Positions 3 through 1,011 of a stretch of 1,011 nucleotides of DNA are shown here, piece by piece. How positions within the stretch are numbered: position 1 is the first letter of the stretch; each line of letters begins with the position of its first letter. Below the pieces are notes generated by a model, which was not told the DNA's origin, did no database searches, and saw nothing but the letters and a program-made list of their open reading frames with translations. The position numbers were made by a program, and so were the translations under genes. The DNA is from Naegleria gruberi (Eukaryota), in NCBI GenBank assembly GCA_000004985.1, contig GG739619.1. One strand, written 5' to 3'.

Positions 3-497
3 AATCAGAATATTGTTCAAATTAAGAAGATACCGAGCTACTTTTCATCCTTTTCAACAAGTAACAATTCTGGGATTTATATTCCTGCAGCAGTGATTGA
101 GCAAACTTCAACACCAGGTGATAATATTTGGTATTCTCTGTGCTGTGCTTTTGGAGGGCTATGCACATTGATTATTGTACTCATCTTTCTACTCTTCTCT
201 GCCATTTGTTTATTCTTCCCACTTATTTATAGTAGAAGTCCAAAGATTCCAATTTTTAACACATTCCCAATTGAGGTTGGATATGGAATGGTTGGAGTGT
301 TAGGGTTGACCTTTTTAGTTTTGCTCTGTTTCTCGAGTTGTTCAATTTATTGCTGTTTATTTGTGAAAAATACGAATCGATCTTCAGATGGAGAGGATAA
401 TGATGAGGAACAAAACAGACCAATGTGTTGTTGCTATTTCGAGTTGGATAATAATGACGATGATGGATTCTTGGCACCTGTTGGTGATTTAATTTAA
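3..497 (+). CDS. Small cysteine-rich membrane protein with two hydrophobic segments, unknown family. It is 5'-partial: frame 3 is open from the window edge to the TAA at 495-497. The ORF-track start at 93 is a GTG and the frame is open upstream of it, so the true start or an upstream exon lies outside the window or across a splice site near 90.
   Basis: Frame 3 has no stop from nt 3 to the TAA at 495-497 and no in-frame ATG. The translation is NQNIVQIKKIPSYFSSFSTSNNSGIYIPAAVIEQTSTPGDNIWYSLCCAFGGLCTLIIVLIFLLFSAICLFFPLIYSRSPKIPIFNTFPIEVGYGMVGVLGLTFLVLLCFSSCSIYCCLFVKNTNRSSDGEDNDEEQNRPMCCCYFELDNNDDDGFLAPVGDLI*. It contains two ~25-30 aa hydrophobic stretches, one bracketed by CC motifs and one by CC-like motifs, then an acidic D/E/N-rich tail with a CCC triplet. 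Codon usage (GGA Gly, CCA Pro, AGA/CGA Arg, CTT/TTG Leu) matches gene 2. AATAAA lies 37 nt downstream of the stop. The start coordinate is uncertain: alternatives are exon start at 91 after the acceptor-like ttcctgcag (82-90), or GTG 93 if prokaryotic, which I consider unlikely. Confidence 0.6.
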   Translation, partial: NQNIVQIKKIPSYFSSFSTSNNSGIYIPAAVIEQTSTPGDNIWYSLCCAFGGLCTLIIVLIFLLFSAICLFFPLIYSRSPKIPIFNTFPIEVGYGMVGVLGLTFLVLLCFSSCSIYCCLFVKNTNRSSDGEDNDEEQNRPMCCCYFELDNNDDDGFLAPVGDLI

Positions 498-720: not shown

Positions 721-1011
721 ATGTACAGAGGTGATAGAAGAATTTCCCACATAACCAATCCGTTCCACGTAAAACACATTACTCCACCAAGTAATCGATC
801 ACCGGATATGATTCACTGGGATGATTTGATGACTGATGAATATTTTAATGCTGTTCTTGAGAGCAAGCCTCCAAAGATAACTTCGGAAGCAGCTGCCGAG
901 ATGCCTGCTCTCGGATTTAATCCTAATGAACCTATTGTTTGGATTGATATTGAAACAACAGGATTGGATGTGCACAAGGATAAAATTTTGGAAATTTCAT
1001 GTGTTATTACT
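721..1011 (+). CDS. REXO2: Oligoribonuclease (REXO2/Rex2/Orn family, DEDDh 3'-5' exoribonuclease). N-terminal 97 codons, 3'-partial, continuing past the window end. It includes a ~73-aa N-terminal extension that is probably an organellar (mitochondrial) presequence.
   Basis: Frame 1 is open from ATG 721 to the window end and is not in the ORF track because there is no stop in the window. In-frame TAA at 712-714 lies directly upstream, so 721 is the first possible ATG, and the context aaaaaaaaATG is A-rich. Translation: MYRGDRRISHITNPFHVKHITPPSNRSPDMIHWDDLMTDEYFNAVLESKPPKITSEAAAEMPALGFNPNEPIVWIDIETTGLDVHKDKILEISCVIT. Residues 74-97, encoded at nt 940-1011, match the oligoribonuclease Exo I region (E. 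coli Orn ...[27 protein letters not shown]; human REXO2 ...[27 protein letters not shown]), including the catalytic D-x-E at nt 946-954. This is recalled from memory of the family sequences, not from a database search. Confidence 0.82.
   Translation, partial: MYRGDRRISHITNPFHVKHITPPSNRSPDMIHWDDLMTDEYFNAVLESKPPKITSEAAAEMPALGFNPNEPIVWIDIETTGLDVHKDKILEISCVIT

Follow-up and report, generated by a model that had tools for sequence, protein, structure and literature searches.

The plus-strand reading frame at positions 3-497 of the window, by which we mean the whole 1,011-nt stretch of DNA analysed here, is very probably a fragment of a conserved multi-pass membrane protein of heterolobosean amoebae. 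Judged by its relatives, the window most likely holds only the C-terminal third of a four-pass membrane protein. The best overall explanation, which we favour with modest confidence, is that this C-terminal third of a heterolobosean multi-pass protein has the membrane topology proposed below and carries putative S-acylation sites. The family has been seen so far only in heterolobosean amoebae (Naegleria and Willaertia) and belongs so far to no named family. The features of the window are as follows.

3-497, plus strand: C-terminal part of a protein-coding gene, 164 codons and TAA, with its start upstream of the window (open frame, coding-like GC, homolog length)
3-119, plus strand: S/N/T-rich, poorly conserved linker, aa 1-39 (homolog alignments start only at aa 35-39)
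120-230, plus strand: entry motif D-x-x-W-x-S-x-C-x-x-F-G-x-x-C and long transmembrane helix A, aa 40-76 (hydropathy, invariant columns, AF2)
231-275, plus strand: Pro-rich inter-helix loop SRSPKIPIFNTFPIE, 15 residues, aa 77-91 (with its flanks, invariant R78, P83, I84, F85, T87, P89, G93 and Y94)
276-365, plus strand: transmembrane helix B, aa 92-121 (hydropathy to 2.25; invariant C109, F110, C117 and F120; AF2 helix)
366-494, plus strand: acidic C-terminal tail KNTNRSS...GDLI, 43 residues, aa 122-164 (12 D+E versus 3 K+R; pLDDT < 50)
498-720, no strand: AT-rich intergenic spacer, GC 0.16-0.25 (composition profile)
721-1011, plus strand: neighbour gene, N-terminal 97 aa of an oligoribonuclease-type RNase_T exonuclease that runs off the window end (PF00929, 27.4 bits, cutoff 24)

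We number the residues of the frame 3 protein from window position 3 (aa 1). Starting at the window edge, this frame stays open as far as a TAA codon at 495-497 and encodes 164 residues, and the other two plus-strand frames have stops at 1-3 and 23-25. The first in-frame Met (ATG) does not appear before aa 96; the start at position 93 is a GTG that comes from the bacterial table-11 ORF rule and gives a 134-aa ORF. The GC content of nt 1-100 is 0.33, compared with 0.34-0.39 in the coding body and the much lower values of the intergenic spacer. Since the window contains no eukaryotic start and the GC content is coding-like from nt 1, the gene continues upstream. The earlier note had read a small membrane protein at 93-497, which is not supported, as the window offers no eukaryotic start codon and the ORF reaches the window edge. 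The 134-aa bacterial-style call on a eukaryotic gene fragment is likely a mis-annotation, and a contig look-up returned no exact-protein record for this ORF. Exact 33-mers of the window gave 0 matches in metagenome, prokaryotic-genome and viral contigs. The GC content of the whole window (31.9%) lies between those of W. magna (29%) and N. lovaniensis (36.7%), in keeping with a Naegleria-like heterolobosean. Base composition, the gene next door and the homologs indicate eukaryotic DNA as opposed to prokaryotic or viral DNA.

On translation, the sequence elements described by the earlier note are all present, namely the two hydrophobic segments, the Pro-rich loop, 11 cysteines including CC, CC and CCC, and the acidic tail; a membrane-protein coding region with a cysteine-rich helical hairpin is confirmed as genuine. 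Hydrophobic segment 1 covers 35 residues (aa 42-76, nt 126-230, IWYSLCCAFGGLCTLIIVLIFLLFSAICLFFPLIY) and segment 2 covers 30 (aa 92-121, nt 276-365, VGYGMVGVLGLTFLVLLCFSSCSIYCCLFV), with maximal Kyte-Doolittle 19-residue means of 3.09 and 2.25, respectively. The 11 cysteines among the 164 residues are distributed over helix A (C47, C48, C54, C69), helix B (C109, C113, C117, C118) and the CCC triplet of the tail (aa 142, 143 and 144, nt 426-434). The resulting cysteine content of 6.7%, against 3.9-4.3% in shuffled sequences (P = 0.02 for codon-position and 0.06 for mononucleotide shuffling), is only modestly enriched given the T-rich composition. The vicinal arrangement is clearly non-random, with four adjacent Cys-Cys pairs (permutation P = 0.002). 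The C-terminal tail (aa 122-164) is probably disordered, as the structure model predicts, and its conservation is poor.

Upstream of aa 35-39, neither phmmer nor tblastn found similarity to either homolog. Within this non-conserved linker, upstream of the hairpin domain, lies an in-frame 30-nt stretch at window 61-90 (GTAACAATTCTGGGATTTATATTCCTGCAG) that looks like a mini-intron in starting with GTAAC and ending with CAG. It contains no stop and its length is a multiple of three, so that, on sequence alone, it may be either spliced or read through.

To find relatives, we used an exhaustive phmmer/HMMER search of 1.84 billion representatives, with the single sequence rather than a profile as query. 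This returned exactly two proteins. The first, P0002, is hypothetical protein C9374_013896 of Naegleria lovaniensis (XP_044553328.1 / A0AA88KQ54, 633 aa), which matched with E 6.4e-24 and about 59-60% identity (query 37-125 against protein 500-588). The second, P0003, is hypothetical protein ABK040_009086 of Willaertia magna (KAL9641771.1, 558 aa), which matched with E 6.2e-10 and 36-39% identity over its residues 221-318. No short family members came out of this search. The earlier note's description as a small membrane protein is therefore at odds with its only homologs, which are 633 and 558 aa long and carry the window hairpin as the second of two. A literature search for papers mentioning the homolog accessions found none.

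Both homologs contain N/Q/H-rich low-complexity sequence and no Pfam domain, and their N-termini are hydrophilic, low-complexity and not signal-peptide-like. Each has two hydrophobic blocks of 65-80 aa with two helices per block; the window hairpin corresponds to the second block and is preceded by 220-500 residues. Because both relatives place the window hairpin second, behind long N-termini, the window protein would be the C-terminal fragment of a four-pass protein. The full-length layout would then run from a long low-complexity N-terminus through a first transmembrane hairpin, a basic helical cytosolic linker and the second hairpin to a variable, usually acidic tail, and the second hairpin would form the conserved core, in which a rigid Pro-rich loop of ~15 residues connects two long helices. 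Ten of the 14 cysteines in each homolog fall within the second-hairpin domain, so that the cysteine-richness of the hairpin is a family trait. In the first hairpin, which lies outside the window, an ALIYFIVF motif is strictly conserved between Willaertia and N. lovaniensis; hhalign gave no support for an internal duplication of hairpin 1 and hairpin 2.

A word-index homology search gave no matches, whether the query was the 164-aa protein or the domain profile built from the three sequences. The profile search by this method also missed P0002 and P0003, although both are in its collection, so its negatives are uninformative, and word-index negatives for TM-rich or low-complexity eukaryotic proteins are not trustworthy. 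The domain profile gave only chance pattern matches in metagenome and viral contigs. The hairpin domain may be more widely spread, or remotely related to a known fold.

The window protein belongs with the two homologs by the similarity of the second hairpin, which includes both the entry motif and the loop motif. Among the three sequences, 26 hairpin columns are invariant: D40, W43, S45, C47, F50, G51, C54, I57, L60, F65, I68, C69, P73 and I75 in helix A, and in the loop, its flanks and helix B the residues named in the list above (R78 to Y94, and C109, F110, C117 and F120). The constrained elements are the entry motif D-x2-W-x-S-x-C-x2-F-G-x2-C, the loop motif and five intrahelical cysteines, and the most densely conserved of all is the loop with its flanks, P-x-I-[FY]-x-R-x4-P-I-F-x-T-x-P-x3-G-Y. 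Over the hairpin, the comparison of the window with the N. lovaniensis gene gave pN 0.27 and pS 0.71, with synonymous sites saturated. These values show purifying selection on the hairpin domain and a large distance between the species. The two homologs together with pN/pS exclude a spurious ORF.

The cysteine pattern stressed by the earlier note is conserved in part. C47, C54, C69, C109 and C117 are found in all three sequences, but C48, C113, C118 and the CCC are absent in Willaertia. In detail, C48 is C in N. lovaniensis and F in Willaertia; C113 is C and I, respectively; C118 is Y in N. lovaniensis and a gap in Willaertia; and the CCC at 142-144 corresponds to CLCC in N. lovaniensis and is missing from Willaertia.

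The N. lovaniensis protein resembles the window protein in the entry motif, the Pro-rich loop, the CC at the start of helix A, the CxxxC in helix B and the Cys cluster in the tail. It differs in its 500-aa upstream part, which lies beyond what the window can show, in the Tyr at C118, in its genomic neighbours, which include no RNase_T gene, and in a far less acidic tail (6 D+E versus 4 K+R). Tail acidity is thus present in the window and Willaertia and barely so in N. lovaniensis. The Willaertia protein shares 26 of the 26 invariant hairpin columns, including the five cysteines and the loop motif, and has its acidic tail right after the hairpin; unlike the window protein, it has its CC in the middle of helix B and no vicinal pairs where the helices end, and it also has a C-terminal extension that is N/Q-rich and very long, and intron sequence upstream of the hairpin domain. 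The Willaertia gene region is not directly translatable to the protein, which fits an intron of ~108 nt upstream of the hairpin domain. The same homolog occurs on two contigs of one assembly (L003 10001-11785 and L004 6442-8226) with identical flanking gene order, Lipase_3 upstream and DCD downstream, which suggests haplotigs or a recent segmental duplication.

We then consider how the hairpin may sit in the membrane. AF2 with the three-sequence domain alignment gave two long helices of about 34 and 38 residues, joined by a loop with short turns and followed by a disordered tail, at a mean pLDDT of 60.6, which is low confidence. Helix A was modelled as one helix, with pLDDT 72-80 in its first three-quarters and ~55 at its C-terminal end. 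The four-helix region of Willaertia was modelled as all-helical, also at low confidence (pLDDT 56.1). According to the well-established positive-inside rule, basic residues flanking transmembrane segments mark the cytosolic side. For the window hairpin alone this signal is ambiguous because the loop carries 2-3 K/R. In the homologs, the 15 residues after TM2 contain 6 K+R (P0002) and 10 K+R (P0003), so by the same rule the linker would be cytosolic. Helix A would run from the cytosol to an extracytoplasmic Pro-rich loop, and the C-tail would be back in the cytosol. We consider this Nin/Cin hairpin, with N-terminus, linker and C-tail cytosolic and the loop extracytoplasmic, to be the probable arrangement.

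With this topology, C47/48 and C117/118 at the cytosolic helix ends, C113 one helical turn deeper and the tail CCC could be S-acylated by DHHC acyltransferases. Acylation would fix both the acidic tail and the over-long helices at the inner leaflet, and in this way tune sorting or lateral organisation. We put forward S-acylation of the cytosol-facing cysteines tentatively. C47/48 and C117/118 do lie at helix ends, which would be cytosolic if the basic stretch that follows TM2 in the homologs is taken as the guide. A short TMD with cysteines next to the membrane suffices as a substrate of a DHHC enzyme, and a Cys moved deeper into the TMD is less acylated (PMC10520890). Since deeper cysteines are less well modified (PMC10520890), the invariant buried C54, C69 and C109 would more likely serve helix packing or another role. 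The features most suggestive of palmitoylation are also the least conserved, as C48, C113, C118 and the CCC are gone in Willaertia and the tail of N. lovaniensis is only weakly acidic. In its working mode the protein would resemble many membrane proteins with juxtamembrane cysteines, and it belongs to none of the named families tested here.

The cysteines also permit a different reading, modelled on small Cys-rich metal-tolerance membrane proteins, in which acylation is not the point: C47, C54, C69, C109 and C117 together with the CCC would coordinate Cu, Zn or Cd, or act as a thiol relay. In its favour, the five intrahelical cysteines, unlike the juxtamembrane vicinal ones, are invariant across genera, S-acylation works less well on cysteines deep in a TMD (PMC10520890), and the hairpin domain holds the 10 of 14 cysteines counted in each homolog. 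However, the three sequences have no His, Met or Asp partners and no CxxC-type metal motifs in common, no metal-transport or CYSTM family was matched even at E <= 10, and the tail Cys cluster is gone in Willaertia. We therefore regard a thiol metal or redox site as unlikely. A related and quite unlikely proposal is that the hairpin is an undescribed, Heterolobosea-restricted membrane domain whose invariant cysteines and rigid luminal Pro-rich loop form a functional site. Such a candidate site could, for example, be a thiol-lined metal/redox site or a ligand-contact loop, so that the hairpin would not be a mere anchor.

The remaining alternatives concern named families and the length of the protein. 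The earlier note had recognised no named family, and this was borne out by the Pfam, PDB sequence and Foldseek PDB searches, none of which gave a match. The Pfam scan had nothing near threshold (best 'Sensor', 14.5 bits versus a cutoff of 28.2), sequence searches of the PDB, for which the protein, the domain profile, P0002 and the hairpin-1 profile served as queries, gave nothing beyond TM-composition noise (E >= 0.1), and Foldseek found no match in the PDB. The earlier note had also been right to leave CD225 and PLAC8 unassigned, since neither was listed by Pfam at E <= 10. CD225/dispanin proteins (IFITM, PRRT2) have two hydrophobic segments, a W-S-L...CC...G-F-like string and juxtamembrane cysteines, and those of IFITM are palmitoylated. 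The sole support for a divergent CD225/dispanin or PLAC8/CYSTM member is a visual likeness of D-x-x-W-x-S-L-CC-x-F-G to D-x-x-W-S-L...CCLGF. The spacing from W-S-L to CC differs by ~8 residues, the loop is Pro-rich and not the basic conserved intracellular loop of CD225, and a 43-aa tail follows the last helix. Sequence and profile similarity to CD225/dispanin is lacking: CD225 (PF04505) did not appear at E <= 10 with the window protein or at E <= 1 with P0002 and P0003, and hhalign of the family profile against a hand-entered IFITM3 sequence gave a probability of 0.5% over 4 columns outside the motif. PLAC8 (PF04749) and CYSTM (PF12734) likewise gave no match at E <= 10 with the window protein or E <= 1 with the homologs, and the cysteines are spread over two helices and the tail, not gathered in a Cys-rich motif within or beside a single C-terminal TM. 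This membership is extremely improbable and effectively refuted.

A reticulon/REEP-like role, in which two hairpins inserted as wedges in the outer leaflet would bend the membranes of the ER or of vesicles, draws on the plan of the homologs, which resembles that of the reticulon homology domain (PF02453) in having a variable N-terminus, a hydrophobic hairpin, a hydrophilic cytosolic linker, a second hairpin and a tail. The window helices are also unusually long (30-35 residues), and hairpin 1 of P0003 (aa 124-194) matched Pfam Reticulon below threshold (E 0.0013, 19.1 bits). That score is far under the gathering cutoff of 31.8 and falls in the hairpin absent from the window, and neither P0002 nor the window protein matched. 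The hydrophobic blocks of the homologs, with two full-length helices in 65-80 aa, are twice as long as the 30-35 aa reticulon hairpin, and reticulons are not known to have a cysteine pattern. Membrane shaping of this kind is very unlikely here. The four-pass layout of the window gene is extrapolated from two non-syntenic homologs, and a shorter paralog would be possible, that is, a stand-alone protein of ~170-250 aa with its start just upstream of the window and the second hairpin only, which would come close to what the earlier note had pictured. It would fit the absence of synteny, as neither homolog has an RNase_T neighbour, and the 36 residues before the domain that are not alignable to the homologs. 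Against this, both family members have the first hairpin and long N-termini, the ORF is open to the window edge with coding-like GC and no Met, and the exhaustive search found no short members. We consider a stand-alone short paralog improbable, and the C-terminal third of a four-pass protein remains our preferred reading.

The genomic neighbourhood was also analysed. The spacer after the hairpin gene, where GC falls to 16-21%, had no Rfam match and contains only low-complexity A/T repeats. Three loosely similar A/T-rich 30-mers occur at 502-531, 624-653 and 695-724 (TTGAAAAAT...AAAAATTCT); they are probably low-complexity sequence, or could be poly(A)-signal or promoter elements common to both tandem genes. 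Searches with blastn against phage records, Rfam, repeat search, and bacterial promoter and terminator scans returned nothing relevant. The RNase_T neighbour is 58% identical to P0001, encoded on the ENA metagenome contig L001, and its N-terminal extension of ~70 aa (MYRGDRRISHITNPF...HWDDLMTDEYF) is conserved in P0001 at 58% identity. On L001, gene calling split the RNase_T gene at 1631-2420 into 1631-1960 and 1998-2420, leaving between them a gap of ~37 nt with GTGAGT just upstream and ...TTTAAG at its end, which suggests, as far as these motifs can indicate, a very short spliceosomal intron. F-box-like proteins flank this homolog (1-1482, minus strand; weak PF00646, 19.6 bits), and the N. 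lovaniensis locus L002 (14010-19247) has a flanking F-box plus Zn_ribbon_GRF. These F-box flanks hint that L001, at 37% GC, may likewise come from a Naegleria-like organism. None of the homolog loci L002, L003 and L004 has an RNase_T gene next to it, and no hairpin gene is present on L001. Because there is no synteny with either homolog, the window gene could be a paralog, or else an ortholog whose region has been rearranged.

If our reading is correct, the window provides a third member, and a divergent one, of a family of heterolobosean multi-pass membrane proteins that has been neither named nor studied. What is new is this divergent member; the two database 'hypothetical proteins' were already known. 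The gene model is also corrected, from a bacterial-style 134-aa ORF to part of a eukaryotic gene. Since protist genomes commonly contain orphan membrane proteins restricted to one lineage, the finding has no bearing on a long-standing open question. If the hairpin did form a functional site, it would represent a new protein family, and with it biology peculiar to the lineage of Naegleria-type amoebae. The map of residues under constraint, with five intramembrane cysteines and the Pro-rich loop, would be a starting point for the membrane biology of Naegleria and Willaertia, including relatives of the pathogen N. fowleri.
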